Positions 9,430-57,496 of a stretch of DNA of 64,000 bases are shown here, piece after piece; position 1 is the stretch's first letter; each line of letters starts with the position of its first letter. The position numbers and the translations under genes were made by a program. Origin of the DNA: Nitrosopumilus sp. Its GTDB lineage: Archaea; Thermoproteota; Nitrososphaeria; Nitrososphaerales; Nitrosopumilaceae. Location: positions 2,240,001 through 2,304,000 of the forward strand of contig OZ243974.1 of assembly GCA_965214775.1 (NCBI GenBank), given 5' to 3'. Under the pieces are notes generated by a model. It made no database searches and was not told the origin of the DNA. It saw only the letters and a list, made by a program, of their open reading frames with translations.

Positions 9430-9645
9430 CTGCGGGACGGTTCAAACAAATGGATGAAGAATGGTGTTGAGGGAGATCCTCGTATAGATGAATGTCCGAC
9501 CTTCATTTTGGAATTGTCAGGAAAGACCACCCCCAGCCAAGGCCATGCCTCACAACGCCGTTGCGCGTGGAATCCTTATAAACCCGACACATAGATAACA
9601 GCTCGGGCTCTGGAAGTTCAGTGTAGTATATGAAAAGTCGGTTCG

Positions 9646-10670
9646 CTAGTCATCTGCGTCCCTCTCCATCCATTTTGCGTCCTTCTTCCTGATCGCTTCC
9701 GTTGCCTCCTTGCTTCTAAACGCCAGAAGCGGCGTCTCACAGTTGGCAATGTCAAGCGAAAAGTGAAGCCTTCTCTCGTTGTAATAGTCCACGTACTGCC
9801 TCAGGCCGTCATAATGCCCTATCTCCTCCTCGATGGTGCGATGGTTTTTGCCTCGCAAGACAGCCAAAAGACGGGCAGGTCATAATGCCCTATCTCCTCC
9901 TCGATGGTGCGATGGAGCCTCTCCAGCTTGCCGTTGGTCTGCGGGTGATATGGCCTGGTGTTTATCAGGATGATGTCCCGTGTAAGCAGCTCCTCTTCAA
10001 AGAGCGTGGGCTGCCACGTCCCCATGCCGGTGCCGCCTTTGGAGGCCGCCTTTTTTCTGCCGTTCTGTCCTACAAAGCACGAGCCATTGTCAGACAGTAT
10101 GGATGCAGGCGTGCCAAACCTCTCGATCGCCAGCCTGAGTGTCATTACGGCGTTCTCAGAGGTGGCATGCTCAAATAGTGCGGCCCCCGTAATGCACCTT
10201 GAGGCATCGTCAAGATACGTGACTAGGTTGAGTCCCTTTAGGCGCGGATCCTTCATTTCATGCCAGTCCACATGCCACATCGCGTTGGAGTATTTGCGCT
10301 CAAAGCGGACGTATCCCCTCTTTTTTGATTTTGCCGCAGACGGAATCACCAGGCCGTTCTTCTTCATTATGCGGTATACTGCACGGTAGCTTGTATTGTG
10401 ATTGTGCCTCAGCCTGCCTGCGGTGCGCAGTACGCCTGTCGGTTCGCCCTCGTGCGTCCCGGTCACCAGACGTATCTGGGCTGCCGTGACCGGGACATGC
10501 GGCCTGCCCATTTTCACGCGCGTCGTACCTGTTGCCTGGAACCTGGCCCACAGCCTCCTTACATGCCTTGCCGTGATGTTCAGATCCTTGGCTATCTTGG
10601 AGGACGCGACGCCTTTCTTGCACTGTCTTACTAGGTACTGCCGTGACTCTTCTGTCAGTATTTTTTTCAT
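9646..10670 (-). pseudogene. IS481-family (rve-type) transposase frameshifted by a 71-bp duplication plus insertion
   Basis: WHVDW, YLDDASR, SDNGSCF, PYHPQTNGKLER; C-terminus (YVDYYNERRLH) continues in another frame. Confidence 0.9.
9808..9915. repeat. 37-bp exact direct repeat (9808-9844, 9879-9915) around a unique 34-bp insert
   Basis: gtcataatgccctatctcctcctcgatggtgcgatgg x2; insert tttttgcctcgcaagacagccaaaagacgggcag. Confidence 0.95.
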
Positions 10671-10782
10671 GGTTTTTCGTGATCGGTACAGCCTAAAATA
10701 GTCCGCTATTGTCCTCCTGATCCTAGGCGGACCGACTTTTCGTACAATAGAGCTGGCGGTTTGATCGTTTGAAAACCAAGAA

Positions 10783-12065
10783 GGCGTTGTCCGGAATTTT
10801 TCCAGAAATCTACCGATAAGCTTATAGATCATAAGCGCAGGATGCGACAACCTTATGGATCATAGGATCGACGTCCCCGTATCAATGAAATCAAAGACCA
10901 ACAAGAAGGAATCCAAGAAGGAATCCAAGAAGGAATCCAAGAAGGAATCCAAGAAGGAATCCAGCAAGACCAGCAAGAAAAAAAAGTCAGAGTACACGAG
11001 ACCTCCGGAATACTATGCCGAGTACGAGAAAAAAAGGAGAGAGGACAGCAAGAGGTGCGGCATCGGAATCAAAAAGATCCGCAAGATCCTCCTGTCCCTC
11101 CTCCATAACACAGAGCAAGAGGATGAAATTCCCTATCTTCTGTGCGTACTCGACATGGAGTACCGCGGAAACTCGTATCGCAGACACGTCGAATACATGG
11201 AGTCGAATCCTGGTTCAACTAACATGTACGGGCTCAAAAAGGTTCCGGCCAAGTCGACACTGCATGATGCAGCCGTAAGGATAGCTGCCTGGGACAAGTC
11301 GGTGCTAAGATCGGTACTCTCAGAACAGGCAGGCGCAGACGCCAGGGGAACGTTGCTTGGCGACTCTAGCGGTTTCTCCATAATGAGATACCACACATGG
11401 GAGGACGCAAAGAAGGGCGTCATATCCAGGCAGATGTTTGCCAAGCTGCACATACTGTTGGCCCCGCACGGCAAGATTGCCGCCTGCGAGGTGACGCCGG
11501 GCGAATTCCATGATTCCCCGGTGTTCCGTAACGAGCTGCTGCCGCAGGTTCCCAACGGCACAGGACACGTGATCCTGGATGCCGCATACGACTCGTATGA
11601 GAACTGCAGGGTCATAGCCGACGGAGGCAGAACCCCAGTGATATGTCCGCGTACAGGATATACGGTTCACGGGTTCAACGCCCGCTCCAAGATGCTAAGA
11701 TGGCACAAAAAGGACCCCGAGGGATTCGAGAAGACGTACCACCAGCGCAGCCTCGTTGAGTCGGCCTTCTCGTCGATAAAGGCAAGGTTTGACTCCACGG
11801 TGCGCGCCATGTCGCTTCCGATGCAGTCGCTCAGGCTTACCCTCAAGGTATTCTGCTACAATCTGGTCAGCTAGGATCCATAATGCCGGTACGGTGGAAT
11901 CGTCCGGCTAGCGGATGCTATGCAGTATGACGTCAAAACACGGGCCATAACTGCACAATGCGGGCCGGAGTGCGGATTCGTCTCTATGTTTGCAGTCATT
12001 GCGCCATGATTTTGTACAAATCTCCCCGGAAATCACGTCCTAAAATCACGATTCCGGACAACGCC
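10783..12065 (+). mobile_element. IS5-family element, 15-bp perfect TIR, 9-bp TSD AACCAAGAA
   Basis: ggcgttgtccggaat…attccggacaacgcc; aaccaagaa at 10774-10782 and 12066-12074. Confidence 0.93.
10855..11874 (+). CDS. IS5-family transposase with N-terminal (KKES)5 tract (12-bp tandem, 10903-10962)
   Basis: GDSSGF, KLHI, LDAAYDS, YHQRSLVESAFS. Confidence 0.92.
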   Translation: MDHRIDVPVSMKSKTNKKESKKESKKESKKESKKESSKTSKKKKSEYTRPPEYYAEYEKKRREDSKRCGIGIKKIRKILLSLLHNTEQEDEIPYLLCVLDMEYRGNSYRRHVEYMESNPGSTNMYGLKKVPAKSTLHDAAVRIAAWDKSVLRSVLSEQAGADARGTLLGDSSGFSIMRYHTWEDAKKGVISRQMFAKLHILLAPHGKIAACEVTPGEFHDSPVFRNELLPQVPNGTGHVILDAAYDSYENCRVIADGGRTPVICPRTGYTVHGFNARSKMLRWHKKDPEGFEKTYHQRSLVESAFSSIKARFDSTVRAMSLPMQSLRLTLKVFCYNLVS

Positions 12066-17416: not shown

Positions 17417-18850
17417 TCATCCAAGCAGGCAGTATGCGTATGATGGCGCATATGACGGATACATTATGCTTGTTTTATCGTTATGTTCATGTCGCAGTCC
17501 GATTGAATGGCCTAGCTCATGCGTCATGATTGTCTCTACACTGCTGACATCATACAATTGAAAACTCCCGTCACAACTGTAGTCTCCTAGTGTTACCTCC
17601 ACTATTCCCTTGCCCAAGTGCGCATGACCTAAAACGCCGTCTCCTATGTCTCTGACAACCCACGTGACCCAGACATTTGCCTCGTGTTTTAAATTTGTGA
17701 CTTTGAACTTTACTTTGGCTTTTTGATTATTTGTGATGAGGTCTTGTGACTCCCAAAATTCAAACGAATTGTGCAAGGTACCGACATGATCCAAGGGCAG
17801 GCCTGTTGGCTGTTCGTTAACGTATACTTTGTAATAGATGACGTATTTGTCCCCAACGATTTCATAGGTTGGATCTGGAAAGTCTTTTGAAGCTTTTTTT
17901 GCTTCCTCTTCGAAATTCCATTTCGCGTAATCCCTGAGGAATTTTTTGATTACGTCTTTGCTGGGATTTGGAAATTCAATGTATCTTTTTTCTTTGGAGA
18001 TGTTATTTGCAATGTCCCTCAAATACATGTCAAAATAGCGGCTTTCCCGGTCCAACTCTTCTTGGGTTTTTTGAACCGGCTGGACACTAATCTCTACAAA
18101 ACCATTGTCCACTAGCCACTGAATGCTTTTGAAAAATTCCTCATCCGGCAAAAGTCTTTCTGCCCACCATCCTGCATTGTTTTTTAACCATGACGGCATT
18201 TCTGGATCTGATGAAGCCCCTTTGGAACCCCCATCGTATGGGACATCTATGATGTTGCTTGCAATGAGGTATTCGATCCCCCTTGCAAAGTCCTCATCTG
18301 TAATTTGAGATGACGCCCACCAGCCTGCAGAATTACGTATCCAGTCTGGGACTGGCCTTGCCTCCGGACCTGACAATTCCCGGGGCTTTTCTGTTGGCGT
18401 ATACGGGTATTTTGAGATGACATTTTCCACAAATTTCTTGTAGTTGGCAAGAACATTGCTGCTTGGTCTTTGCTCTATTGCCTTTTCAAAATATTTTTTC
18501 GACTCTTCATATTCGCCTAGGTTGCCAAACCCTAGTCCCATCCCGGACAGTGCAATGACATCATCTGGCATATGCTGCAATATTGCAAAAAACTGTTTAA
18601 GCGATTTTTGATGCTCGTTGATGTTGCTCTGGGCAATTCCCTTCATTTTTAGAGTGGATATGTTGTTTGGAGAGATCTCTAAAATATCGTCATAAATCCT
18701 TATTGCCTCGTCATAATCCCCCCTGACAAAATGCGCGTTAGCCTGGTTGAACATCTCCTCGGATTCCTCTTTTTCTGCTTGCCCATAAACCGAACCAGTC
18801 AAGACTGATGCGCCACACAAAAGAACCAGCAAAATCTGAATTCCGTGCAT
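17417..18850 (-). CDS. Secreted TPR + PxWIRNxAGWW + matrixin-type zinc metalloprotease
   Basis: Signal peptide, TPR helices, HELGHSIGLRH, SIMYP Met-turn. Confidence 0.88.
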   Translation of the reverse strand: MHGIQILLVLLCGASVLTGSVYGQAEKEESEEMFNQANAHFVRGDYDEAIRIYDDILEISPNNISTLKMKGIAQSNINEHQKSLKQFFAILQHMPDDVIALSGMGLGFGNLGEYEESKKYFEKAIEQRPSSNVLANYKKFVENVISKYPYTPTEKPRELSGPEARPVPDWIRNSAGWWASSQITDEDFARGIEYLIASNIIDVPYDGGSKGASSDPEMPSWLKNNAGWWAERLLPDEEFFKSIQWLVDNGFVEISVQPVQKTQEELDRESRYFDMYLRDIANNISKEKRYIEFPNPSKDVIKKFLRDYAKWNFEEEAKKASKDFPDPTYEIVGDKYVIYYKVYVNEQPTGLPLDHVGTLHNSFEFWESQDLITNNQKAKVKFKVTNLKHEANVWVTWVVRDIGDGVLGHAHLGKGIVEVTLGDYSCDGSFQLYDVSSVETIMTHELGHSIGLRHEHNDKTSIMYPSYAPSYAYCLLG

Positions 18851-18979
18851 GATACGTTTTTGCCCGCTTATTTTAGATATACTTTGTTTCTGTTTTCTTC
18901 TACTGTCTTGCGCGCAGCGCTTGCGGTTTAAGTCATTTTAGAAAATCTTTAATTCGTTCATGATGGGGAGTTTTATGTA

Positions 18980-19315: not shown

Positions 19316-20332
19316 TCACTCTGCTGCCAGATGGATTAGATCGCCTGCAATTACTCTTAAACTGCCCTTTTTATTAGAAATGACCAGACTGCCGTCATCA
19401 TCAATTCTTTGTGCCCTGCCCCTGACTCTTCCATTGTTTGGGGTGTTGATTTCTACCTCTTTTCCTATGGTTGATGATCTTTTTGTCCATTCTGAAATGA
19501 TCATCCCTGTTCTTTGTTCATGAAGCAAATTATAGATTTTCTCCAATTCTTGAAGAAATTCTCGGACTAGCTGTACGGGTTTTATTTTTTTATCCAAATC
19601 CCCAAGTGCGGCAACACCGTAAAAATTTGGCGTGTCCATGAGATTTTTCTCAATCTGTTTGGCAGCATCTGCATCAAAATTAATCCCTACCCCTAACACT
19701 AGATTCTCTATTTTATTTGATTGCAAGGATGCATCTACCAGCATTCCTGCTACTTTTTTGTCTTTGATTGTAAGATCATTTGGCCACTTTAGTTCTGGAG
19801 TTTTTCTGAAGACCTTTTCAATTGCATATGATAGTGCAAGTGACGATGCAATTGGAAATAACGTTGTAACGGAGACGTCAAATTTCGGGTGAAGGATTAC
19901 TGACATCCAAATTCCGCCTTTTGGGGAAACCCATTTTCTTCCGGAGCGCCCCCTTCCTTCGGTTTGCCTTCCGGCAATAATTATGGCGCCGTTATTCTTT
20001 GCGTCTTTGGCCATTTTGAGCGCCTGGTTCTGAGTCGAATCAGTACTGTCAAAATAAAACGCTCTTTGGCCTATGATTTTGGTTTTTAATTCAGAGGTAA
20101 CCTCCCATGGAAGCGGCACTTGCGAATTTGAGGTCAGTCTGTAGCCTGACTTTTGCTTTGATTCAACTGTGTATCCTAATTCCTGAATTTTCTTGATGTG
20201 TTTCCATACGGCTACCCTGCTAATGTGCAAAACGTCGCTCAAATCTTGTCCTGAAAGGTATTCTGTGTTGTGTGCTTGAAGAAATGTTAGAACTTTGACT
20301 AATCCTGGCTTGTCAAATGAATTATAAATCAA
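19316..20332 (-). CDS. birA: Biotin-protein ligase with N-terminal HTH
   Basis: SRVAVWKHI, QTEGRGRSGRKW, KWPND, KVAGML. Confidence 0.95.
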   Translation of the reverse strand: MIYNSFDKPGLVKVLTFLQAHNTEYLSGQDLSDVLHISRVAVWKHIKKIQELGYTVESKQKSGYRLTSNSQVPLPWEVTSELKTKIIGQRAFYFDSTDSTQNQALKMAKDAKNNGAIIIAGRQTEGRGRSGRKWVSPKGGIWMSVILHPKFDVSVTTLFPIASSLALSYAIEKVFRKTPELKWPNDLTIKDKKVAGMLVDASLQSNKIENLVLGVGINFDADAAKQIEKNLMDTPNFYGVAALGDLDKKIKPVQLVREFLQELEKIYNLLHEQRTGMIISEWTKRSSTIGKEVEINTPNNGRVRGRAQRIDDDGSLVISNKKGSLRVIAGDLIHLAAE

Positions 20333-26108: not shown

Positions 26109-26386
26109 AATCTCTCTTTTCAAACAATGCACTTAGATCTTGGGTTGACGAAATACTGATGCCTATGATGTCTATAGAGACTATTCTGATTTTAGGCTCA
26201 GCCGTACATTGATTTTTCAGATGTTTCTTCTGATGGATTAGCTGTTGTAGACAACCCGCTAAAATTAGAGCGAAGAATTTTTTGAACATGTCCTGAAACT
26301 CTTGCAACATTATCCCACGTGTCATGAAATGAAATCCTGTCTACTCTCTGCTCGTCAACATGTGAAAAAATCGCCAAGCCTATTAT

Positions 26387-27736
26387 CAGTAGACGGAAAT
26401 GTACCCCCTTTAAATACGTCTGACAGACGACAGCGTAAAAAAATCTACCAAAAATGTAAACAAATCTAGATCACACAGATCAACTGTAAGGCGCCCCTAC
26501 CCGCTATAGTGATTGGACAAAATAGCGGGCAAAAGCACCGCATCAACATGGGCAACAGGGTGCTTAATACCTTGGCAAACATCATAGGCGGCGGGGGCGA
26601 GATCAAGTTCTCCAAGCAGCATAACGCGCTATACGGACTGTCACAGTTTGTGATGATCCTGGCATCCATGTGCAAATCAGGCCAGACTGCAACAGAGAGC
26701 GTGATAGAGTTTGAAGACAGCGAGAACCTGCCCACTGCCAGGTGGTTTCACGGAATGGTCCGAACCGCAGGCCTTGACGGAATAAGACAGATTTGCGATG
26801 ACCTGATGGATATTGCAATCAAGGCCGCCAAAAAGGGCGGCATTCACAGTAACGGCCCCGTCATGATTGCAATAGACAAGCACGAGATACCGCGGTATGA
26901 CAAGGACAACATGAAGTATCTGATAAGATCAAAGCCCAAAAAGGGAACAAGCAAGTTCGAGGCGTATGCGACCATGCAGGCAGTCGACTCCCCTGTCAAT
27001 GCCACGCTCGGATGCATTCCGCTCACAAGGGAGGACTTTGACGCCGATTTCGTGCGTAAATTTGTGAATATTCTCAGGAAATCAAACATAATGTACCGGC
27101 TCTTTCTGCTGGACCGGGAGTTCTACTCAGTTGACATAATGACAGAGATGTATCGTGCAGGAAAAAAGTTCCTGATGCCTGCAATCAAGAATGCCACAGT
27201 AAAGAATGCAATAGAGGCGGCACACGCAGCAGGCAAGACAAAGGGGAGCTGCGTGTCTGATTTTACCATTACAAACCGCAAAGGCAAGACCGCATCATTT
27301 AACCTGGTCATCGTGCCGTCTGCCATGCACGGGCAGGAGGGCAAGACAGTAGTGGAACAGTACGTGGCATTTGCCACCAACCTCCCGTTCTCCAACGCAC
27401 TGCACGAGATCGATACTGCCTCACCGGACTACCGGAAGAGGTGGGGCATAGAGACAGGATACAGGCAGATAGAGCAGATACGGGCCAAGACCATAAGCAG
27501 GAACCAGGACATCAGGCTGCTTGTATTTTTTGTGTCTGTCTTTGTGTACAACATGTGGGCCATCGAGCGCAACAGGGACGACATATGGTGTGCGAGAAGG
27601 GATCTTACGTTATTGCGGGTTTCATGCGCGCTTCTCATGGCTGCTAGAAGGAATCTTGCAGAATACGGGTTTGCCGGCCCGCCACTGCCGCCGTAGGGTC
27701 GAGGTGGCCTTTGGGGGGTTACATTTCCGTCTACTG
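26387..27736 (+). mobile_element. ISH3-family element B copy 1, 5-bp TSD ATTAT
   Basis: cagtagacggaaatgta…tacatttccgtctactg. Confidence 0.95.
26509..27696 (+). CDS. ISH3-family transposase
   Basis: IAIDKH, LDREFY, YRKRWGIETGYR. Confidence 0.93.
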   Translation: MIGQNSGQKHRINMGNRVLNTLANIIGGGGEIKFSKQHNALYGLSQFVMILASMCKSGQTATESVIEFEDSENLPTARWFHGMVRTAGLDGIRQICDDLMDIAIKAAKKGGIHSNGPVMIAIDKHEIPRYDKDNMKYLIRSKPKKGTSKFEAYATMQAVDSPVNATLGCIPLTREDFDADFVRKFVNILRKSNIMYRLFLLDREFYSVDIMTEMYRAGKKFLMPAIKNATVKNAIEAAHAAGKTKGSCVSDFTITNRKGKTASFNLVIVPSAMHGQEGKTVVEQYVAFATNLPFSNALHEIDTASPDYRKRWGIETGYRQIEQIRAKTISRNQDIRLLVFFVSVFVYNMWAIERNRDDIWCARRDLTLLRVSCALLMAARRNLAEYGFAGPPLPP

Positions 27737-35416: not shown

Positions 35417-36085
35417 GGTAGTTTGATGTAGGCTTTGGCGTATTAGACTTTATGCGTAATCGACCGTGATTAAAAATTCCGTAGGCTTTTCCAAACGCAA
35501 ATGCGCTGATCGGATCAAATTACCGCATGCATCTCGTGTCATGACGCACGTAAAAGCCAGTTGCGCCAAAAGAACGTGCGCAACCATGCAGCACGGCAAT
35601 GTGCCCCGTTGACAAGTCAGAAAGAATGGCGGTCCGTACCGCCGTATGTCATGTGTCTGGCAGCAGATGCAGCTGCTGCAGCAGCTGGCCATAGTATTTT
35701 TTCCTTTTCAACATCGTCTTGAGGTTCTCAAGACCCGTGATTATCTGCATGAAATAATTGAGATCCTTGGCAGTTCCGCCAAACGGCATGGTAAGAATGC
35801 CATATCTTTTGAGCCGCCCTATGTGGTGCTCCACCCTGACGCGAACCCTGCTTATCTGCTTGCGGCGCCTCTTTTGCGTTGCAGTAAGATCCCCGTCCCT
35901 GGGCTTCTTTGGGGGCTGCCTGTTAGTCAATTCATAAAAAAACGAACAATTTTGACAACTGCTTTTGATCCAAACATTAAGATCAGGCAAACCATCGCAC
36001 ATGCATGGGAAAACAGGTAGAATTCGCAACATCAAGGGACAAATTCCTAGGCAAGCAAAGCACTCACGTCTTCGCAAGGCGTACT

Positions 36086-36218
36086 AGACCCGACAGTATG
36101 GAACACGACAGTTGTTGTGGCAGTAGTTAATTCGTGCATGGGGGGTTTGACATACTGCCACACAAGACCCGACAGTATGGAACACGACAGTTGTTGTTGC
36201 TGCTGCTGCTGCAGTAGT
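36086..36218. repeat. Direct repeat (33 bp exact, then gcagtagt) around a 37-bp unique segment, just 3' of the transposase gene
   Basis: agacccgacagtatggaacacgacagttgttgt at 36086 and 36165. Confidence 0.9.
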
Positions 36219-37327
36219 CAGCCCATCAAATATCGGAACATCTTTACCGGTAGGATCTCTCCACTGGCAAACATCTTCCGCACGGACTGCTCCATCTCAT
36301 CAAGCGTATCAAACATCTTGGCAGACAGCCTCCGCTTTATCTCCCTCCACTGTATCTCTACAGGATTGAGCTCCGGCGTGTGCGGCGGCAGGTACTTCAG
36401 TATTATCTCGCCCTTGTACTTTTCCAGCATCTCCCTTACGCCGACAGACTTGTGGTATGACGCATTATCCAGGAATATCAACACCTTTCCGTACTTTTCG
36501 TGCACCTTTTCCAAAAAGTCGCAAAAGCTGTCGGTGTTGGTCTTGTCATAGAACATATAGTAGAATATGTTAACTGCCAGCACGCCGAACATGTACCGGC
36601 GCTGCCGTGACAGCGTCAAGGGCGCCGTGACGCTCATGCCGCGCCTGAGCCACCCGTGTTTGGGGCTGTTTGAGGTCTTTTGTATGGATGACTCGTCTTC
36701 TGCCAGTACCGTATACCCTTGCGCCTCCTTTTCCCGTATCAGCTCTTGGGATGCCTCCTTGAACTCGTTCTGCTTTTGTTTTGAGACGGCCTTTGGGTTC
36801 TTTGGCCTCGGCTTCCTCCATGAGAACCCAAGCTCGCGTGCCAGCAGCCGCGTGCCGCTCTTGCTGTATTCTATGCCGAACTTCTTTTTGATGTGCCGTC
36901 TCATCAGGCCCGAGTCCCACAGGCTGCTCTCAAAACCGCACTCCTCGGATCCTGACTTGAGATCCGCTGCAAGCTGTTTCAGCTGCGACTCACTCAGCTT
37001 GTGCTTGCGTCCCCTGCCTGGCCGCTCGTGCCTTGCACGTATTCCCTCGTCCTGTGCGCGGATGAGCCACTTGGATATGGTGGAATGTGCCCGGTCGAGG
37101 TTCTTTGCTATCTGTTCCACACCGAGGTCGTCCTTGCGCTGCATGTATGCAAGCAGCCTGTCGCGCTTTCTCTTGTCTGTCTCCTTTTTGTATGCCTTGT
37201 GCAGGTAGGAGCGTGACGTATTTGGCAGGAATTTGCTTCCTGATGCTACGAATTCCTTTCTCTGTCTGTCCATGCATATGCGTATTCCTTGCCTGATCTT
37301 AATGTTTGGATCAAAAATAGTTGTCAA
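36218..37327 (-). CDS. IS630-family transposase
   Basis: LGFSWRKPRP, EDES, LDNASYH, PELNPVE. Confidence 0.95.
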   Translation of the reverse strand: MTTIFDPNIKIRQGIRICMDRQRKEFVASGSKFLPNTSRSYLHKAYKKETDKRKRDRLLAYMQRKDDLGVEQIAKNLDRAHSTISKWLIRAQDEGIRARHERPGRGRKHKLSESQLKQLAADLKSGSEECGFESSLWDSGLMRRHIKKKFGIEYSKSGTRLLARELGFSWRKPRPKNPKAVSKQKQNEFKEASQELIREKEAQGYTVLAEDESSIQKTSNSPKHGWLRRGMSVTAPLTLSRQRRYMFGVLAVNIFYYMFYDKTNTDSFCDFLEKVHEKYGKVLIFLDNASYHKSVGVREMLEKYKGEIILKYLPPHTPELNPVEIQWREIKRRLSAKMFDTLDEMEQSVRKMFASGEILPVKMFRYLMG

Positions 37328-38454
37328 AATTGTTCTTTTTTTTATATGTTGACTATGTGTATGGCGCCCGGAAGCATCTTTTGAATGCCCTCAAATCCCA
37401 GGTCGCTGTAAATCACAAACGCCTCTTCCGGATCGTCTGCGTTTTTTGCATTCCTCATTGATCCGGTGTGCCTTCCAAAGTCCGGGCCGCCCCCTGCGTT
37501 CATCACGCCCTTGTCGTTGACGCTTCCGTCCACAGTCTTGCCGCAGTGCAGTATGAGGCCGTCCAGGTTCGAGGTAATTATCGTGTTGAACATGTGCCGC
37601 TTTTTTCTTCCCGAATATCTGGTCTTTCTTGCGGTCCTGTCCCCGGGCCTGTCTACCGGAGTCAGGGTGCCGTCAATCAGGAGCGTCTTTTTTGGGATCA
37701 GCACCTCCTCCAGCTTGCCTGCCGGGGTCTTGCAGATGATGCTTGTTAGCTTTTCGGAGGCAGGCAGGAGCCGGCGCAGTAACACGGCACCGTACCGGAG
37801 GTACCTGGACATTGTGGACTGGTCGACGTCAAACGTTGCGGCCAGATGATGCTGCGTTGCCTTGGTCCTTATGCTCATGAGTACTGCAAGCAGCGCGTGC
37901 CTGATGTACAGTTTGCACCGGTTTCCGGCATCGCCGCCTCTTACGTCGTCCTCCCAGAACAGGGGTCTGTCCTCGTCGTCCATGACTTCTTCCGTAAAGC
38001 GCTCCAGTATGATCGTAAATGACTCCTTTGTGCATCCCGTGACGTTGCAAAGGCGCACCGGATCGCCGATTATGCCGTCTGCAACCTCGATTGCGTGCAT
38101 CCGCAGAGGCGTCCCGCCGCGCACGACTCTTTTTGTCTTGTTTTCTTCGGACTGCCACAACGAGTCCTCAAACGCAAGCTGCTTCCTCATACGCTCGTTT
38201 TGCTTGGACATCTGTTTGTTTTGCTTGGATACCTGCTCGTGTTGCTCGACTAGCATCTCGTGTTGCTCGACTAGCATCTCGTGTTGCGCTTGTAACGCTT
38301 GAAATGCTTGGAGAGTCTTGTCATTTGAGCCCATACAGTTAGGGAATCATACAGATCTTTAGGGTTGTTGGTGTGCAAATAATGATCTATTGTGTCGTAT
38401 TTTTAGATCAGATGGGCCGATTACGCATAAAGTCTATTAGAACATTCTTCTATT

Positions 38455-45720: not shown

Positions 45721-45993
45721 CGCTAGTGTTTTAGATTTGTTTTTACTCTGTCAAGAATTCTTTCTGCCCACTTTATGGATTTTTCTGCCTGGTCGCCTCT
45801 CATCAAATCTGGCTGATACTCTGATGCATTTTTCAGACTAAGTAGCGAGCTAAACTGCCTTTCTACGTCTTTGAATTCTGAACCAGCAAAGATGCCTTTT
45901 ATAAGCAATAACACATCAGTATGTGATCCTGAGGCGCGTTTGTTTAGATGAAAGGTTGTAAGTGCATCTAACGCATTAATTGCACCGTGTACG

Positions 45994-47128
45994 TAGTATC
46001 CTCGGCTACCAATTGATCACAAAAAGGACAATTTTTTTCAACCAAAGGATCTAAGAGCTATTAGTCCCATATATACACATGAAAGGAAAGAAGGAATTAC
46101 CGACGGGAACAGCGTTCCTGTACGGGATAGCAAGCAAGGACGAGCTTTTTAGGATGCACAAGTCCGAGAAGGACGCCAAGGCGGCAATCCGGCTCCTTGC
46201 ATACCACATGAGAAAGTGCGGCGCGAGCATATATGATATTGCCGAGAAGCTGAGCAGGCCGTATGGAACCGTACGATACTGGCTGGTGCGTGCGCACAAG
46301 CATGGCCTGGAGGGCAGGTTTGACATAAAGCATGGCGCCCCGTGCAGGCTCGACAAGAAACAGCTTGAACGGCTGCGCGCAGACCTGATCAAGGGCCCGG
46401 ACAACTGCGGCTTTAAGGCCACAACATGGACAGGGCCGCTGGTCATTGCCCACGTCAAAAAGAAGTTCGGCATCACGTATGCAGAAACGAGCATGTACGA
46501 CCTGCTGCACAGAATCGGCTTCTCATGCAGAAAGCCCAGGCCAAAACACCCAAAATCAGCCTCAGAATCCGAGAAAAAGGAGTTCAAAAAAAAAGCTAGG
46601 CAGAGCGCAAAGTACTATTCAAAAAAGGGGTACACGGTAATGATAGGCGACGAGTCCATGTTCATACTGGGATGGAACGTCAAGAACAGCTGGTACCCCG
46701 TAGGAGAGCCGGTCTATACGCCCGTCAGCCTGTCTAGGAAGCGGTTCTATGTCATAGGGGCCCTCTCAAGAAACAGGTTTGACTATCGCTTTTACGAAAA
46801 GGCCAACACGGGAACATTCTACAAGTTTCTCAGGACACTGCGCCGCAAGTACGGCAAGGTGTTGTTGTTTGTCGACAACGCATCGTACCACAAGTCAGCA
46901 GAACTCAATAGAAAGATGGCCAAGTGGAACGGGGACGTGGTGCTAAAGTACCTGCCGCCGTACGCGCCGGAGCTTAACAACTCGGAGGGGCAGTGGCGCG
47001 GGTTCAAAAAGGCGACTTCAAACTGCCTTTACAAGACCGTCAAGGAGATGCAGAGATCACTGCGCAGTATGACGCGCAGGGGCGAGATAAAGGTGGTAAA
47101 GATGAACAAATGGCTGACGTAGATACTA
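45994..47128 (+). mobile_element. IS630-family element C copy 1 (TAGTATC…GATACTA), CG duplicated
   Basis: gtaCG[…]CGcaat; near-identical to 54564-55697. Confidence 0.93.
46079..47122 (+). CDS. IS630-family transposase, continuous frame (A9 tract)
   Basis: GDES, VDNASYH, PELNNSE. Confidence 0.95.
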   Translation: MKGKKELPTGTAFLYGIASKDELFRMHKSEKDAKAAIRLLAYHMRKCGASIYDIAEKLSRPYGTVRYWLVRAHKHGLEGRFDIKHGAPCRLDKKQLERLRADLIKGPDNCGFKATTWTGPLVIAHVKKKFGITYAETSMYDLLHRIGFSCRKPRPKHPKSASESEKKEFKKKARQSAKYYSKKGYTVMIGDESMFILGWNVKNSWYPVGEPVYTPVSLSRKRFYVIGALSRNRFDYRFYEKANTGTFYKFLRTLRRKYGKVLLFVDNASYHKSAELNRKMAKWNGDVVLKYLPPYAPELNNSEGQWRGFKKATSNCLYKTVKEMQRSLRSMTRRGEIKVVKMNKWLT

Positions 47129-48312: not shown

Positions 48313-48400
48313 GTTCGTAGCAGGTCGGGCTCTGGAAGTTCATGTATGAATTTTGTCAGTAATGACTGCCGATCAAATAGAATTTGTTCGTAGCAGGTCG

Positions 48401-49023
48401 GGCTCTGGAAGTTCAGGCGCGAATCTTGCGACCTCGGAGGTCTCCCGGGCATTACCACTGGCCATCAGTAGGATTTGGAAAAATTACAACACATAAAGAT
48501 CACAGGATCTGTCTTTCCTGTATTGGTTGGAGATCCTGATATTATTGACATGGACTGGAACAATCCCGACGTACGCTGCCTGTTTGAACACATGAAGTCA
48601 AGGATGGAGAAGATTGAAAAAAGAAAACCAGCGACTGCAAAAAGAAAACGTGTAGCTAAGGACGCAGCTCGCACAGCAACAGTAGACAGCGGCCGCATCT
48701 GGATCCGGACCGGCTCTTCTGAAGGAGGAATGTAAGAGATCAAACCTCCGCGACTACAACATACGCAAGTTAGATGACTTTCCGCACCCCGAAAAGCCGG
48801 CCCCCAAAAAAAGAAACCCGATACCAAGGCCGTCATCCATACATGTTTGGTAGACATCAAGTTCTGTCCGACTGCAATAACAAGCTCCTGGCTGGTTTGA
48901 AGAACATCCAAAGGGCTAAGAAGGCAGCAGCTAGGATTCTGAAATCGATTCTTAATTTTAGGTATAAATTCTGATTGAACGATTCTTTTTGGTGGCAAAA
49001 TTAGTGCCTGAACTTCCAGAATA
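48401..49023 (+). mobile_element. Decayed IS with ~30-bp TIR (tctggaagttcaggc…), family unclear
   Basis: Inverted ends at 48404 and 49006-49020; fragmented ORFs; related ends at ~9605, ~48328 and ~49715. Confidence 0.6.
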
Positions 49024-49370: not shown

Positions 49371-49452
49371 GCCGGGATAGCCAAGCGGTAAGGCGGCCGT
49401 CTCGAAAACGGCTACGCGCAAGCGTGCAGGGGTTCAAATCCCTTTCCCGGCG
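49371..49452 (+). tRNA. tRNA-Ser(CGA)
   Basis: Acceptor GCCGGGA/TCCCGGC, anticodon arm gccgt-ctCGAaa-acggc, long variable arm, GGTTCAAATCC. Confidence 0.95.
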
Positions 49453-49679: not shown

Positions 49680-50146
49680 GGCAAAATGGGTTGTGTGGCA
49701 GCATCTTTGAATATGGAAGTTCAGGCATGAATTTTACTACTGATGAATGCAGATCAAAATAGAGTTTGCACCTAAAATCAGAAACGGCTTCTAGAACCAG
49801 TTCAGTTACCAAAATTTGCTAATTATAATTCACTTCTCAGGCCGGGTTCTGTGCAATCTTCGACACCTGAAATATGGATCTTCTCCGTGTCAAGTGCCGT
49901 CGCCTGAATTTTGGTTGGCTGGCAGTGTACCTTCTAGCTTGGATTTTAGACAATGCTCCGCTTGGAATCATCTCAATTCAAAGACGTTTGTCGAATAGTC
50001 CACTACTTCGGGGTAATTGCAAGGAATGAATTCTTTGGGCGATGCCTGTGCATGAATGTAATCCATAATATACGTTCCATTTGCTTGTCTTATTCCCGTT
50101 AGTTGGTAAAGCACAAGATAGCCTCCATAATCATTTTCTTGGCAGT

Positions 50147-51702
50147 AGACTTTATGCGTAATCGGCCCATCTGATCTAAAAATACGACACAATAGATCAT
50201 TATTTGCACACCAACAACCCTAAAGATCTGTATGATTCCCTAACTGTATGGGCTCAAATGACAAGACTCTCCAAGCATTTCAAGCGTTACAAGCGCAACA
50301 CGAGATGCTAGTCGAGCAACACGAGATGCTAGTCGAGCAACACGAGCAGGTATCCAAGCAAAACAAACAGATGTCCAAGCAAAACGAGCGTATGAGGAAG
50401 CAGCTTGCGTTTGAGGACTCACTGTGGCAGTCCGAAGAAAACAAGACAAAAAGAGTCGTGCGCGGCGGGACGCCTCTGCGGATGCACGCAATCGAGGTTG
50501 CAGACGGCATAATCGGCGATCCGGTGCGCCTTTGCAACGTCACGGGATGCACAAAGGAGTCATTTACGATCATACTGGAGCGCTTTACGGAAGAAGTCAT
50601 GGACGACGAGGACAGACCCCTGTTCTGGGAGGACGACGTAAGAGGCGGCGATGCCGGAAACCGGTGCAAACTGTACATCAGGCACGCGCTGCTTGCAGTA
50701 CTCATGAGCATAAGGACCAAGGCAACGCAGCATCATCTGGCCGCAACGTTTGACGTCGACCAGTCCACAATGTCCAGGTACCTCCGGTACGGTGCCGTGT
50801 TACTGCGCCGGCTCCTGCCTGCCTCCGAAAAGCTAACAAGCATCATCTGCAAGACCCCGGCAGGCAAGCTGGAGGAGGTGCTGATCCCAAAAAAGACGCT
50901 CCTGATTGACGGCACCCTGACTCCGGTAGACAGGCCCGGGGACAGGACCGCAAGAAAGACCAGATATTCGGGAAGAAAAAAGCGGCACATGTTCAACACG
51001 ATAATTACCTCGAACCTGGACGGCCTCATACTGCACTGCGGCAAGACTGTGGACGGAAGCGTCAACGACAAGGGCGTGATGAACGCAGGGGGCGGCCCGG
51101 ACTTTGGAAGGCACACCGGATCAATGAGGAATGCAAAAAACGCAGACGATCCGGAAGAGGCGTTTGTGATTTACAGCGACCTGGGATTTGAGGGCATTCA
51201 AAAGATGCTTCCGGGCGCCATACACAGGCAGCCCCCAAAGAAGCCCAGGGACGGGGATCTTACTGCAACGCAAAAGAGGCGCCGCAAGCAGATAAGCAGG
51301 GTTCGCGTCAGGGTGGAGCACCACATAGGGCGGCTCAAAAGATATGGCATTCTTACCATGCCGTTTGGCGGAACTGCCAAGGATCTCAATTATTTCATGC
51401 AGATAATCACGGGTCTTGAGAACCTCAAGACGATGTTGAAAAGGAAAAAATACTATGGCCAGCTGCTGCAGCAGCTGCATCTGCTGCCAGACACATGACA
51501 TACGGCGGTACGGACCGCCATTCTTTCTGACTTGTCAACGGGGCACATTGCCGTGCTGCATGGTTGCGCACGTTCTTTTGGCGCAACTGGCTTTTACGTG
51601 CGTCATGACACGAGATGCATGCGGTAATTTGATCCGATCAGCGCATTTGCGTTTGGAAAAGCCTACGGAATTTTTAATCACGGTCGATTACGCATAAAGT
51701 CT
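50147..51702 (+). mobile_element. IS5-family (ISL2/Harbinger-like) element copy 2, intact, 3-bp TSD AGT
   Basis: TIR agactttatgcgtaatcg; agt flanks. Confidence 0.95.
50248..51498 (+). CDS. ISL2/Harbinger-like DDE transposase with N-terminal heptad repeats
   Basis: LIDGT, YSGRKK.H, GSVND, SDLGF, RVRVEHHIGRLK. Confidence 0.93.
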   Translation: MGSNDKTLQAFQALQAQHEMLVEQHEMLVEQHEQVSKQNKQMSKQNERMRKQLAFEDSLWQSEENKTKRVVRGGTPLRMHAIEVADGIIGDPVRLCNVTGCTKESFTIILERFTEEVMDDEDRPLFWEDDVRGGDAGNRCKLYIRHALLAVLMSIRTKATQHHLAATFDVDQSTMSRYLRYGAVLLRRLLPASEKLTSIICKTPAGKLEEVLIPKKTLLIDGTLTPVDRPGDRTARKTRYSGRKKRHMFNTIITSNLDGLILHCGKTVDGSVNDKGVMNAGGGPDFGRHTGSMRNAKNADDPEEAFVIYSDLGFEGIQKMLPGAIHRQPPKKPRDGDLTATQKRRRKQISRVRVRVEHHIGRLKRYGILTMPFGGTAKDLNYFMQIITGLENLKTMLKRKKYYGQLLQQLHLLPDT

Positions 51703-52261
51703 AGTATATTACAAAACTGTCCCCGATGGTAAATTCTCTTTCAAAGTCTTCAAAATGATTAATCGGATAAGGTGGCAATTCTTCAGGAATTCTAAAACTG
51801 ATTTTTATGGTTTGCTCGTCTAACAATGTAAGATCCATCAATTCTCGAGAAAGTGTATGATTCATTCTTACAAAGGTAGTTGAATGAGGATGAGGAGAAT
51901 CAGGTGAGATTTCGCTATTTTTTATTGGTACTGTGTACTTGTAATAATCAGTCAGCGGGTTGTAAAAGACCGGAATCATCACTGCTGCCACCGTGACAAT
52001 TCCAGCTATTAGCAAAATCGAATTTTTCATATCTGATGATGCATTAAAGAAAGAAAAAAGGTTATGGGTTGGTCCAATAATAGGAACCAAGACTCTCTAC
52101 GAGAATTCCAACTATCTAGGGATTTGACGCTGAAGGATCATGATGGAGGGCAGAGGCACAATAGTTGAGATTCAAACCATCATCGCTTAAATCATGCCGC
52201 AATGCTTGAGCCAGATATGGCGTCATTTCAACTGCATTGATTATGGTCTGCGGCCCAGTAT

Positions 52262-53611
52262 CAGTAGACGGAAATGTACCCCCTTTAAATACGTCTGACA
52301 GACGACAGCGTAAAAAAATCTACCAAAAATGTAAACAAATCTAGATCACACAGATCAACTGTAAGGCGCCCCTACCCGCTATAGTGATTGGACAAAATAG
52401 CAGGCAAAAGCACCGCATCAACATGGGCAACAGGGTGCTTAATACCTTGGCAAACATCATAGGCGGCGGGGGCGAGATCAAGTTCTCCAAGCAGCATAAC
52501 GCGCTATACGGACTGTCACAGTTTGTGATGATCCTGGCATCCATGTGCAAATCAGGCCAGACTGCAACAGAGAGCGTGATAGAGTTTGAAGACAGCGAGA
52601 ACCTGCCCACTGCCAGGTGGTTTCACGGAATGGTCCGAACCGCAGGCCTTGACGGAATAAGACAGATTTGCGATGACCTGATGGATATTGCAATCAAGGC
52701 CGCCAAAAAGGGCGGCATTCACAGTAACGGCCCCGTCATGATTGCAATAGACAAGCACGAGATACCGCGGTATGACAAGGACAACATGAAGTATCTGATA
52801 AGATCAAAGCCCAAAAAGGGAACAAGCAAGTTCGAGGCGTATGCGACCATGCAGGCAGTCGACTCTCCTGTCAATGCCACGCTCGGATGCATTCCGCTCA
52901 CAAGGGAGGACTTTGACGCCGATTTCGTGCGTAAATTTGTGAATATTCTCAGGAAATCAAACATAATGTACCGGCTCTTTCTGCTGGACCGGGAGTTCTA
53001 CTCAGTTGACATAATGACAGAGATGTATCATGCAGGAAAAAAGTTCCTGATGCCTGCAATCAAGAATGCCACAGTAAAGAATGCAATAGAGGCGGCACAC
53101 GCAGCAGGCAAGACCAAGGGGAGCTGCGTGTCTGATTTTACCATTACAAACCGCAAAGGCAAGACCGCATCATTTAACCTGGTCATCGTGCCGTCTGCCA
53201 TGCACGGGCAGGAGGGCAAGACAGTAGTGGAACAGTACGTGGCATTTGCCACCAACCTCCCGTTCTCCAACGCGCTGCATGAGATCGATACTGCCTCACC
53301 GGACTACCGGAAGAGGTGGGGCATAGAGACAGGATACAGGCAGATAGAGCAGATACGGGCCAAGACCATAAGCAGGAACCAGGACATCAGGCTGCTTGTA
53401 TTTTTTGTGTCTGTCTTTGTGTACAACATGTGGGCCATCGAGCGCAACAGGGACGACATATGGTGTGCGAGAAGGGATCTTACGTTATTGCGGGTTTCAT
53501 GCGCGCTTCTCATGGCTGCTAGAAGGAATCTTGCAGAATACGGGTTTGCCGGCCCGCCACTGCCGCCGTAGGGTCGAGGTGGCCTTTGGGGGGTTACATT
53601 TCCGTCTACTG
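52262..53611 (+). mobile_element. ISH3-family element B copy 2, 5-bp TSD AGTAT
   Basis: Same TIRs; only a few SNPs relative to copy 1. Confidence 0.95.
52384..53571 (+). CDS. ISH3-family transposase
   Basis: Two aa differences from 26509-27696. Confidence 0.93.
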   Translation: MIGQNSRQKHRINMGNRVLNTLANIIGGGGEIKFSKQHNALYGLSQFVMILASMCKSGQTATESVIEFEDSENLPTARWFHGMVRTAGLDGIRQICDDLMDIAIKAAKKGGIHSNGPVMIAIDKHEIPRYDKDNMKYLIRSKPKKGTSKFEAYATMQAVDSPVNATLGCIPLTREDFDADFVRKFVNILRKSNIMYRLFLLDREFYSVDIMTEMYHAGKKFLMPAIKNATVKNAIEAAHAAGKTKGSCVSDFTITNRKGKTASFNLVIVPSAMHGQEGKTVVEQYVAFATNLPFSNALHEIDTASPDYRKRWGIETGYRQIEQIRAKTISRNQDIRLLVFFVSVFVYNMWAIERNRDDIWCARRDLTLLRVSCALLMAARRNLAEYGFAGPPLPP

Positions 53612-54256: not shown

Positions 54257-56931
54257 ATGAAAGGTCAACCCTCCACATACTGTGAGATCGAGGCATCTAT
54301 GGCATCGTCGACGGAGAAGATACAGAGTCTGGAAAAGGGCATCAAGGAACGTGACAACATCATCAAGGAACGTGACAACATCATCAAGGAACGTGACACG
54401 ACCATTGAGAAACTAAACAACATAATCAAGGATCAGGGCAGCAGGCTCCGATACTATGAGAACGAGAACTCGCCCCCGTCGGCAGACTCGCTTGCGTGGA
54501 AGGAGCAAAAGGCACAGAGGAAAAAGGAGAGGGCCCGATCCGATGCTGCAGCCGGGAATGACGTAGTATCCTCGGCTACCAATTGATCACAAAAAGGACA
54601 ATTTTTTTCAACCAAAGGATCTAAGAGCTATTAGTCCCATATATACACATGAAAGGAAAGAAGGAATTACCGACGGGAACAGCGTTCCTGTACGGGATAG
54701 CAAGCAAGGACGAGCTTTTTAGGATGCACAAGTCCGAGAAGGACGCCAAGGCGGCAATCCGGCTCCTTGCATACCACATGAGAAAGTGCGGCGCGAGCAT
54801 ATATGATATTGCCGAGAAGCTGAGCAGGCCGTATGGAACCGTACGATACTGGCTGGTGCGTGCGCACAAGCATGGCCTGGAGGGCAGGTTTGACATAAAG
54901 CATGGCGCCCCGTGCAGGCTCGACAAGAAACAGCTTGAACGGCTGCGCGCAGACCTGATCAAGGGCCCGGACAACTGCGGCTTTAAGGCCACAACATGGA
55001 CAGGGCCGCTGGTCATTGCCCACGTCAAAAAGAAGTTCGGCATCACGTATGCAGAAACGAGCATGTACGACCTGCTGCACAGAATCGGCTTCTCATGCAG
55101 AAAGCCCAGGCCAAAACACCCAAAATCAGCCTCAGAATCCGAGAAAAAGGAGTTCAAAAAAAAGCTAGGCAGAGCGCAAAGTACTATTCAAAAAAGGGGT
55201 ACACGGTAATGATAGGCGACGAGTCCATGTTCATACTGGGATGGAACGTCAAGAACAGCTGGTACCCCGTAGGAGAGCCGGTCTATACGCCCGTCAGCCT
55301 GTCCAGGAAGCGGTTCTATGTCATAGGGGCCCTCTCAAGAAACAGGTTTGACTATCGCTTTTACGAAAAGGCCAACACGGGAACGTTCTACAAGTTTCTC
55401 AGGACACTGCGCCGCAAGTACGGCAAGGTGTTGTTGTTTGTCGACAACGCATCGTACCACAAGTCAGCAGAACTCAATAGAAAGATGGCCAAGTGGAACG
55501 GGGACGTGGTGCTAAAGTACCTGCCACCGTACGCGCCGGAGCTTAACAACTCGGAGGGGCAGTGGCGCGGGTTCAAAAAGGCGACTTCAAACTGCCTTTA
55601 CAAGACCGTCAAGGAGATGCAGAGATCACTGCGCAGTATGACGCGCAGGGGCGAGATAAAGGTGGTAAAGATGAACAAATGGCTGACGTAGATACTACGG
55701 CACCAGGAATAACAGGAAAAAGCCCGGCGGCCAAAAGGGCCACAAGGGCGTATCGCGCGTCCACCGGCCCACCCGGGTACAAAGGCACTACTTTCCGGGC
55801 GGACAGGCGCCAGAGTGCTGGTGCGGCACCACCACGAAGATCATGAACAGGCCGCAGACACGCGACATGATTGGATTTGAGATCAAGGCGATTGAGACTC
55901 GCCACGAGTCGCAGAGGGCAGTATGCCCAAAGTGCGGCACGTATCATATTGCCCCCAACGGCCTGCCCCGATGCGGCAACTACGACACGAGCGTGGTCAC
56001 AGCCGTCACCAAGCTGCGCAGCGAGGGCGTTCCATACAGCAGGATCCCAGGCATCCTGTCAGATATCACGGGTGTGGACATGTCAAAGTCAACTGCAATC
56101 AACAACGTGGGGCGCGTCTGCGAGGCCGCAAAGGCGCCTGCCGAGGCCATCGCAAAGGAGGTAAAGATCTCAAAGACCGTCTGCATAGACGAGACGGGGA
56201 TCAACCTGGCAGGCAAGACGGGATGGGTGTGGACCATACTGTCAGCAGCAGGCATACTCATGATATACAACAATACAAGGAAGGCCCTGGTTCTGGACCA
56301 GTACATGAGCGGGTACAAGGGTGTCGTCACATCAGACGGATATCCCGCACACAAGAGGTTCGATCCGGGGGGAAGGCACCAGCGGTGCTGGGCGCACGAG
56401 CTGCGGTCCCTCCTGTATGGTTCGCAGAAAAAGGACGCCCCGCTGTTTGCAGGGATCCTGTACCGGCAGGGGCAGCAGCTGTTCGGAGACGCCAAGACGT
56501 GTCTGGAAGGGTGGGACAAGCTGTCCCCTGAGGATCTCCTGGATCTTGAAGAGAGGACGGGAATAAGGGCCGCCGACGGGCTGATGGGCCGGCACTCGCC
56601 GGAGCTGCGCCGGCGGTTTGAGACCAACATGCGCAACGTCCTGTTCGGATACAGGGATACGCAGGACGAATCGTTGAAAGCTCTTGTCAGGCGGATGTAC
56701 AATGCCCTGCCTGGCCTGTTTGCATTCCTGGAATACGAGGACGTCGAGCCCACCAACAATTCTGCAGAGCGGGCGCTGCGCCCCGTCGTATTGCAGGACA
56801 AGATAAGCGGCCAGATCAAGGGCGGCCTGGTCTGGATGGACAGGTACGGATGGCTCAATACATGCACCTCGACGTGGAAGCTGCAGGGCAAGTCCATCAT
56901 GGTTGAGGTAGCCAAAATAATTCAGGGGTAG
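54257..56931 (+). pseudogene. IS66 transposase split at …AGND|GTRNNRKKPGGQKGHKG
   Basis: NSPPS, KPGGQKGHKG, CPKCG, IDET, SDGY, QRCWAH, PTNNSAERALR; 21-bp heptad repeats at 54340-54398. Confidence 0.92.
54564..55697 (+). mobile_element. IS630-family element C copy 2, CG duplicated; transposase split at the A8 tract (54649-55691)
   Basis: tgaCG[…]CGgcac; one A shorter than copy 1. Confidence 0.93.
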
Positions 56932-56943
56932 GTGACCTCATAC

Positions 56944-57496
56944 GTGCTACCTGTTCGCCTCGATGGACGACGATACGCGCTACTGGCTGGCCTCCGACTT
57001 GGCAGACAGCAAGTTCCAGCACAACGCGGATTCCCTCTTGGAGATAACCAAGAAGCAGGCAGGAAAGAATCCTAGGAACTTCATCACGGACGGCCTGCCG
57101 GCCTATGCCAAGTCCTCAAGGAAGGTATTCGGAAAGGGCACAAACCACGTGAAGCACATCCGTCTGGCAGGAAAAAGGGACAGTGACGACAACAAGATGG
57201 AGAGGCTCAACGGTGAGATCAGAGACCGCGAGAAGGTGTTCAGGGGCCTCAAGAAGATGGATACGGCCATACTTGACGGAATGAGTCTGTCTTTCACTGT
57301 TCTTTCTTCCACCCAGCTGTTCAAGAAGATGGATACGGCCATACTTGACGGAATGAGGGTATACTATAATTTCACAAAAAAGCACGGTGCACTGGACGGC
57401 CAGACCCCTGCAGAATCGGCCCTGATAAGCGTGGACGATGCGAACAAGTGGAAGACGATAATCCAGAACGCCTCACTAAGCAAGGATTCTGTCTAG
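56944..57496 (+). pseudogene. 5'-truncated IS6/IS240-like DDE transposase with an in-frame 72-bp duplication plus insertion
   Basis: YLFASMD, ITDGLPAY, NKMERLNG, YYNF..KH..L.G.TPAE. Confidence 0.8.
57249..57357. repeat. 37-bp exact direct repeat (57249-57285, 57321-57357) around a unique 35-bp insert
   Basis: tcaagaagatggatacggccatacttgacggaatgag x2; insert tctgtctttcactgttctttcttccacccagctgt. Confidence 0.95.

Follow-up and report, generated by a model that had tools for sequence, protein, structure and literature searches.

Off-target integration of CRISPR spacers is so far known mainly from Escherichia coli with overproduced Cas1-Cas2 and from in vitro work. Cas1-Cas2 of the E. coli type I-E system, with its 28/29-bp repeat, was reportedly overproduced by Nivala, Shipman and Church in 2018, and the resulting structures were called neo-CRISPR units. 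In the available parts of the sources (Nivala et al. 2018; via 10.1101/148544, PMC6698737, PMC7054753), off-target integration in E. coli is described as a spacer-sized insert flanked by a repeat-length duplication of non-CRISPR chromosomal DNA, and for natural genomes the available part of one of them (10.1101/148544) offers circumstantial evidence only. In a plasmid assay in vitro, in which the repeat was 30 bp long, Pyrococcus furiosus Cas1-Cas2 also placed spacers at non-CRISPR sites that share repeat features (accessible part of PMC6698737). For the type I-G system (formerly I-U) of Geobacter sulfurreducens with its Cas4/1-Cas2, the accessible part of PMC6547450 gives a predominant spacer of 36 bp and a repeat ending in AGC. 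Here, a 64-kb stretch of DNA of Nitrosopumilus sp. (contig OZ243974.1, positions 2,240,001 to 2,304,000; hereafter the window) was analysed, in which the transposase gene of an IS481-like insertion sequence (IS) is interrupted by 71 bp made up of a duplicated stretch of the gene and an unrelated insert.

The 71 bp were probably left behind when a Cas1-Cas2-type integrase inserted a CRISPR spacer off target. Observed in the genomes analysed were the geometry of this unit, further units with inserts of their own, relatives in which the site is uninserted, and a matching canonical array in one relative. The kind of event is already known, and what is new is a natural, archaeal and unusually dense case. 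A literature search that included works citing the 2018 neo-CRISPR study gave, in the parts of the texts that were available, neither scars of this type from Nitrososphaerota nor a natural genome in which they are as dense.

The layout of target, insert and target is the same as in the neo-CRISPR units of E. coli, but the units described here are natural and archaeal, follow a ruler of 36-37 bp, lie in transposase genes and in an ATP-binding cassette (ABC) transporter, and are many, with 2 in 64 kb of the window and 17 in 31 loci of one related genome (CBDATR01, its mini-array counted in); moreover, the window sites have no detectable likeness to a repeat or a leader. Two hot spots in related loci (L050/L057 and L038/L068) are, as read by eye, repeat-like as in P. 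furiosus, whereas most sites here show no detectable likeness. As to the G. sulfurreducens system, a canonical array in locus L016 of a relative lies beside type I-G genes and has a repeat that ends in GAAGC, and the inserts are 33-39 nt long in 24 of 25 units; however, I-G genes were found in relatives only and not for the window's genome (window; best 120 Csx17 and Csb1 homologs). Genuine arrays, among them mini-arrays and solitary repeats of mobile elements, share the repeat-spacer-repeat layout and the period with the units, and mini-arrays occur on viruses. In contrast to these, the "repeat" in the window is transposase coding sequence, and a conserved repeat, a hairpin, a ATTGAAGC-type 3' handle and cas neighbours are missing from it. 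Transposon and casposon duplications likewise arise by staggered strand transfer and gap repair; usual target-site duplications are, however, far shorter than 36-38 nt, and the inserts here bear no relation to one another, measure 30-39 nt and lack terminal inverted repeats.

The 71-bp insertion and a second unit in the window

The sequence GTCATAATGCCCTATCTCCTCCTCGATGGTGCGATGG is present in exactly two copies in the window, at 9808-9844 and at 9879-9915, which are identical at 37/37 positions and lie 71 nt apart from start to start. A third copy was not found in the 64 kb at up to 3 mismatches, and in shuffled sequence 0 such 37-nt matches are expected by chance. The bases that border the two copies differ (c/g before and t/a after), which fixes the length of the repeat at exactly 37 nt and leaves exactly 34 nt for the insert between the copies (9845-9878, no strand assigned). 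In the reading direction of the transposase gene, which lies on the minus strand, the copy at 9879-9915 comes first; it shares the frame of the N-terminal part and codes for HRTIEEEIGHYD. The second copy at 9808-9844 (minus strand) codes for the same peptide and shares the frame of the displaced native C-terminus. The spacer-like insert is unrelated to its flanks and unique in the window, where no second match was obtained at up to 3 mismatches, and it is absent from 74 related loci (1.37 Mb). A mapping of the insert to adjacent DNA, named in an earlier note on this DNA as a finding that would speak against its reading, was thus not observed.

That note had described a repeat-insert-repeat at 9808-9915 with a net gain of 71 bp; its coordinates are exact. 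Translation of the reading frames confirmed a frameshift by the 71 bp a short way past the GKLER motif of the IS481-like transposase. The claim that the gene becomes continuous again once one repeat and the insert are taken out agrees with an IS copy of a related genome in locus L024 (87% protein identity), which has a single site without the insert. Because L024 carries one site and lacks the 71 bp, the state of the window is a 71-bp insertion comprising 34 new and 37 duplicated bases. The N-terminal open reading frame (ORF) spans 9819-10850 on the minus strand with a likely ATG start at 10670. From there, the truncated transposase frame (9819-10670, minus strand) runs from MKKILTEE through ...HPQTNGKLERLHRTIEEEIGHYD into the insert, which is read as LPVFWLSCEAK, and through the second copy out of frame as far as a stop past the insert, 19 codons after entry into it; the translation across the insert is LPVFWLSCEAKTIAPSRRR, followed by the stop. 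The displaced native C-terminal part (HRTIEEEIGHYDGLRQYVDYYNERRLHFSLD...; 9646-9843, minus strand, within an ORF at 9646-9867) is out of frame with the rest and continuous with the N-terminal part in L024. The frameshift removes about 54 C-terminal residues, and the truncated transposase is presumably inactive.

The host element (9622-10751, minus strand) has a length of 1130 bp including the 71-bp insertion. Its ends were taken as the points where the alignment with the copies in L001 and L024 stops, and it has imperfect terminal inverted repeats with arms at 9624-9646 and 10727-10749 (23 nt, 83% complementary). The transposase has a Pfam rve domain (3.2e-12) and an N-terminal HTH_29 domain; its best NCBIfam model is IS481 with 156.6 bits, compared to a curated cut-off of 224, and the element was named IS481-like because of this lower score. 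It has the features of the IS481 family (rve/DDE and HTH domains, about 1 kb in length, inverted repeats), yet stays below the model cut-off. The copy in L001 (97% identical) diverges fully from the window copy right after GGAGAGG, upstream of the target site (from about 10880 onward), and continues with a different C-terminal coding sequence, so that it is possibly a hybrid or a recombinant.

The earlier note had treated the event as singular, which does not hold, as a second unit is present in the window and 23 further units and a mini-array are present in relatives. In the whole-window repeat scan, a different 37-nt target was found in two perfect copies at 57249-57285 and 57321-57357 (both plus strand), which lie 72 nt apart around an unrelated insert of 35 nt (57286-57320, no strand assigned). 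This insert is unique in the window and has no second copy there or in the 74 loci. The unit at 57249-57357 is borne by a fragment of an IS6-like transposase gene (56963-57496, plus strand; NCBIfam IS6, 1.1e-08), in which it is in frame and adds 24 residues, so that the protein reads KKMDTAILDGM SLSFTVLSSTQLF KKMDTAILDGM. The 24-residue insertion is missing from 7/7 aligned homologs. The IS6-like fragment is truncated at its N-terminus and adjoins a transposase gene of the IS66 family (55843-56931).

Recurrence in related genomes and comparison with a canonical array

For the collection of related loci, genome contigs were searched with the 264 residues of the transposase up to the first repeat copy. 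The resulting 74 loci all stem from metagenome-assembled genomes of Nitrosopumilaceae or other Nitrososphaerota, with 97% identity for the best IS match, so that the window's own genome is not among them. The window and the 74 loci (1,437,519 bases) were scanned for direct repeats not more than 100 nt apart, every candidate was read, and the units were counted from repeat tables and by reading of the sequence by eye without a script. In total, 25 two-copy units (2 in the window, 23 in relatives) and one mini-array of six repeats were obtained. The duplication has a length of 36 nt in 8 units, 37 nt in 12 and 38 nt in 2, which gives 22/25 units with 36-38 nt; single units have 35, 40 and 44 nt, the last with a perfect core of 38 nt. 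The period is 71 nt in 2 units, 72 nt in 9, 73 nt in 9, 74 nt in 4 and 75 nt in 1, and the one insert outside the 33-39-nt range has 30 nt. All 25 inserts differ from each other. Second copies were sought for ten inserts (the two window inserts in the window and the loci, eight locus inserts in the loci only) and none was found, which argues against local template switching. A mini-element of the type of miniature inverted-repeat transposable elements was rejected on the same grounds, that is 25/25 different inserts and no recurrence of the 10 searched inserts in the 74 loci.

Besides the window and CBDATR01, units were found in CBDCCK01 (2 units in 5 loci), OZ244732 (3 in 4 loci), OZ245003 (1 in 5 loci) and OY759726 (1 in 2 loci). 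The 9 loci of CAXXLJ01 gave 0 units and one ambiguous 31+41 pair only, and 0 units were found in the 18 loci of six other assemblies; these include 9 loci of two soil Nitrososphaerota genomes, whose lack of units is taken as a lineage restriction. In older units the two copies have diverged to 84-97% identity, which indicates inherited DNA and not assembly noise. Locus L004, from a 1.87-Mb Nitrosopumilus genome, carries two units 640 bp apart (18813-18921 and 19453-19562) that split the genes of an ABC-transporter ATPase and a BPD_transp_1 permease; the process therefore strikes cellular genes as well. The mini-array (L047:198-593) is built on a non-CRISPR sequence of 36-39 nt. Four of its units, each of 71 nt, are identical; after them comes one more, at a spacing of 73 nt, whose spacer is another, so that the array holds two distinct spacers. 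The site seems to have been used repeatedly, with amplification afterwards, and is a candidate newborn array.

Tandem duplications that lack an insert also came up in the scan; their periods are 30, 36, 36, 37, 43, 48, 73 and 75 nt. Those of 36-37 nt, possibly aborted integrations or else slippage events with no connection to the units, are located in L014 (16150-16223), L072 (6081-6152) and L062 (638-709), the latter from a lineage without units. Off the period, only three non-tandem short-range families were found (45/79, 27/67 and 35/61 nt for repeat and period), and two pairs with a 41-nt period belong to a tandem-repeat family. Some cases were regarded as ambiguous and left outside the count: the pair 48313/48386 in the window, a pair of 31+41 nt in L007 (the same as in L028), a three-copy repeat in L006/L030 that is probably a coding repeat, and a 37/69 pair in L015 with 81% identity.

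A genuine CRISPR array was found at the start of locus L016 of a relative. It has 17 repeats with the consensus GATTTCCGTAACGTAGAAGTTACGGCCCCATTGAAGC, in which 36 positions are invariant and the first base is variable, and a degenerate terminal repeat after these. The repeat contains a 7-bp hairpin. The 16 spacings are 70 nt (1), 71 nt (5), 72 nt (4), 73 nt (5) and 74 nt (1), so that the spacers have 33-37 nt if the repeat is taken as 37 nt. The array adjoins the type I-G genes Csb1/Cas7g, Csb2, Cas3g and Cas8g1/Csx17. At 1398-18777 of L016, two successive I-G sets are present (csb1, csb2 and cas3g in both, csx17 in the first only), parted by an IS481-like copy and HEPN/nucleotidyltransferase genes. 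Neither cas1 nor cas2 nor cas4 was found in the 20 kb of L016, and Cas1, Cas4/1 and cas2 were not seen in any of the fetched loci. A solitary repeat, ATTTCCGCAGCCTAACGGTTGCGACCCCATTGAAGC, which is related to the L016 repeat, lies in L067 (9753-9788, minus strand); it has the same ends and hairpin, with the stem altered on both strands, and is located about 30-40 nt from the end of an IS481-like element near a VirB4-like ATPase gene, with no cas genes nearby. Rfam CRISPR families gave no match in L016, L067 or L047. Among the listed matches of searches for I-G homologs, relatives were represented by OY759726 (Csx17, Csb1) and by a contig matching CAXXLJ01 (Csx17).

The isolated units share repeat length, spacer length and period with the CRISPR arrays of the lineage, and their "repeat" is whatever sequence was struck. 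The flanks of 37 nt in the window, and of 36-38 nt in 22/25 units, correspond to the 36+1 nt of the L016 repeat, an array that belongs to a relative and not to the window's genome. The two window inserts, with 34 and 35 nt, have the length of spacers and are related neither to their flanks nor to other inserts, and both window sites have uninserted counterparts, namely the single site of L024 and the 7/7 IS6-like homologs without the 24 residues.

The choice of target sites was compared with the canonical repeat as well. One site in paralogous IS481-like copies was struck twice with different inserts and a register shift of 0-1 nt (L050/L057), and the same holds for a second paralogous IS481-like site (L038:310-426 and L068:10359-10466; different inserts, 0-1-nt shift). 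The L050/L057 site ends in CCCCACTGAAGC, which by eye matches the 3' end of the canonical repeat at 11/12 positions and has a weak model match at L057; the L038/L068 site agrees with the canonical repeat in register at 17/37 positions by hand count, including CCG.A.CGT. A sequence-only model of the L016 repeat retrieved with default filters the L016 repeats and the solitary repeat of L067 only, and without filters 40 weak matches (E up to 10) in 448 kb, three of which fell on units (two sites, L044 and L057). The outermost 5' base is G at 18/40 ends of 20 units, counted on either strand by hand and post hoc; the canonical repeat (G...C) shows the same. For the window units, the z-scores of the fold range from -1.0 to -2.1, versus -3.0 and -3.2 for canonical repeats. 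Repeat mimicry at the window sites is not claimed, as the unfiltered model matched neither of the two window units.

Other mobile-element features of the window

A motif of about 30-43 nt (core CAGGTCGGGCTCTGGAAGTTCA) is present in four copies at 9591-9633, 48313-48355, 48386-48428 and 49694-49736. One of them directly adjoins the IS481-like element at its outer end, two are 73 nt apart, and the copies bracket a region with a tRNA gene (49371-49452); they possibly represent the attachment-site repeats of an element that integrated here. The 43-nt/73-nt pair 48313/48386 was rejected as a unit because it belongs to this four-copy element near the tRNA gene. Likewise rejected as a third unit was a 39-nt/79-nt repeat at 36083-36200, whose duplication is at least 45 nt long in L001, with a period of 79 nt, and which is IS-borne. 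This repeat (L001 5316-5439) is 39-45 nt long, lies at the edge of an IS630-like element and is conserved in the relative; a (TGC)n run follows its second copy.

At 35649-38334, a nested insertion is located: an IS630-like element (36218-37327) apparently interrupts a DDE_Tnp_4 transposase gene (37342-38334 and 35649-36077), of which an intact paralog is found at 50248-51498. Near-identical IS copies are present at 45991-46886 and 54561-55455 and at 26378-26677 and 52253-52552. Two overlapping ORFs (54649-55209 and 54996-55691) in the second IS630-like copy suggest a frameshift there.

Origin of the units and meaning for the lineage

For the unit at 9808-9915, the responsible enzyme would be a Cas1-Cas2-type integrase that carried a prespacer of about 34 bp, whose two 3' ends attacked opposite strands of the transposase gene with a stagger of 37 bp. 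The stagger would equal one CRISPR-repeat length, and gap repair would copy the 37 bp between the points of attack. Whereas the repeat would be duplicated by these steps in an array, a transposase coding stretch would have been duplicated here, leaving target, insert and target. The unit would then be a by-product and not a working CRISPR locus. To our knowledge, Cas1-Cas2 full-site integration is the sole process that leads to two copies of a target, each one repeat long, around an insert of spacer length. The event was probably recent in this lineage, because the two copies are still identical. As the identical copies of both window units suggest recent events, a working integrase should exist in the window's lineage or should have existed there until recently. 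A functional CRISPR array at this unit was rejected: there are two copies only, they consist of transposase coding DNA with a weak fold, and neither cas genes nor an Rfam CRISPR family were found.

Several results weigh against an origin by spacer integration. In the window, no cas genes were detected by Pfam on 59 of 83 ORFs of at least 130 amino acids, and Rfam reported tRNA only and no CRISPR repeat. Homologs of type I-G proteins from the window's own contig were not among the best 120 of 252 Csx17 and the best 120 of 6520 Csb1 matches, in searches none of which was directed at Cas1. The invariant part of the canonical repeat has 36 nt and the commonest duplication 37 nt, and three of the 25 units (35, 40 and 44 nt) are off the ruler. 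A likeness of the target to the repeat was not found for the two window units and is weak elsewhere: the nine weak matches of the unfiltered repeat model in the window include none on either unit, and the window 37-mers lack the 7-bp hairpin of the L016 repeat. Finally, no protospacer was recognised in phage records, in which the 34-nt insert gave a 17-nt match only, at chance level, and the 35-nt insert chance-level matches only.

The lack of Cas1-Cas2 for the window's genome (by Pfam in the window and among the best 120 Csx17 and Csb1 homologs), together with window target sites that are not repeat-like, would suit a non-CRISPR integrase or a mini-element that makes staggered cuts of 36-37 bp and inserts fragments of about 35 bp. 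Such an agent is nevertheless unlikely: the inserts share no sequence and so do not represent an element, the geometry equals that of the canonical array of the relative, and the L057 hot spot with its CCCCACTGAAGC end resembles the end of the canonical repeat. Casposons have a target duplication of about 14-15 bp, and we know of no transposase or casposase with a target duplication of the size seen here. Quite improbable is also a reversible switch, in which duplication and insert keep the transposase off until recombination between the 37-bp repeats restores it. Deletion of one repeat and the insert would restore the frame exactly, and with identical repeats the unit could be lost through slippage or recombination; recombination between CRISPR repeats is a known route of unit loss, and precise loss of the present unit in this way is mechanistically possible. 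Like geometry is, however, found in the ABC-transporter ATPase and permease genes, in other transposase families and at other positions, and the second window unit (57249-57357) is in frame, from which it follows that the structure is not tied to the regulation of the IS481-like gene. Divergence between the copies of older units (84-92% identity), moreover, shows simple decay in many cases.

Local duplication with a captured fragment could also result from replication slippage, template switching or break repair with filler DNA, and such events can in general yield direct repeats around filler DNA; this is considered very unlikely. A donor of the insert was found neither in the window (at up to 3 mismatches) nor in the 1.37 Mb of related loci, and these processes would not give 36-38 nt in 22/25 units and a period of 71-75 nt in 25/25, with only three distinct non-tandem short-range families off the period (79, 67 and 61 nt). 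That the related records are metagenome-assembled genomes could point to an assembly or sequencing artefact, the least credible of the explanations at hand, as units occur in the window and in five independent assemblies, the copies of older units differ by substitutions, the inserts at paralogous sites are not the same, and the IS6-like protein of the window is present with its insertion in a public protein collection too.

If spacer integration is accepted as the origin of the units, a wider conclusion is tentatively favoured, namely that in IS-rich Nitrosopumilaceae the CRISPR integrase is a frequent and ongoing insertion mutator. It would leave dozens of scars of 71-75 bp per genome, prefer certain sites in IS481-like elements, knock out transposases and cellular genes, and occasionally seed sites that take further spacers, the last because of the mini-array with two spacers in L047. 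For genome annotation, units of 71-75 bp account for one class of frameshifted transposases and pseudogenes, and programs that look for CRISPR could mistake them for tiny arrays. The genomes of a lineage rich in such scars would reveal the mutational cost of adaptation, the ruler and the target preference of the integrase, and the first steps of array birth. If integrase scars are indeed this frequent, they would constitute a natural record of the cost of CRISPR adaptation and of the birth of new arrays.

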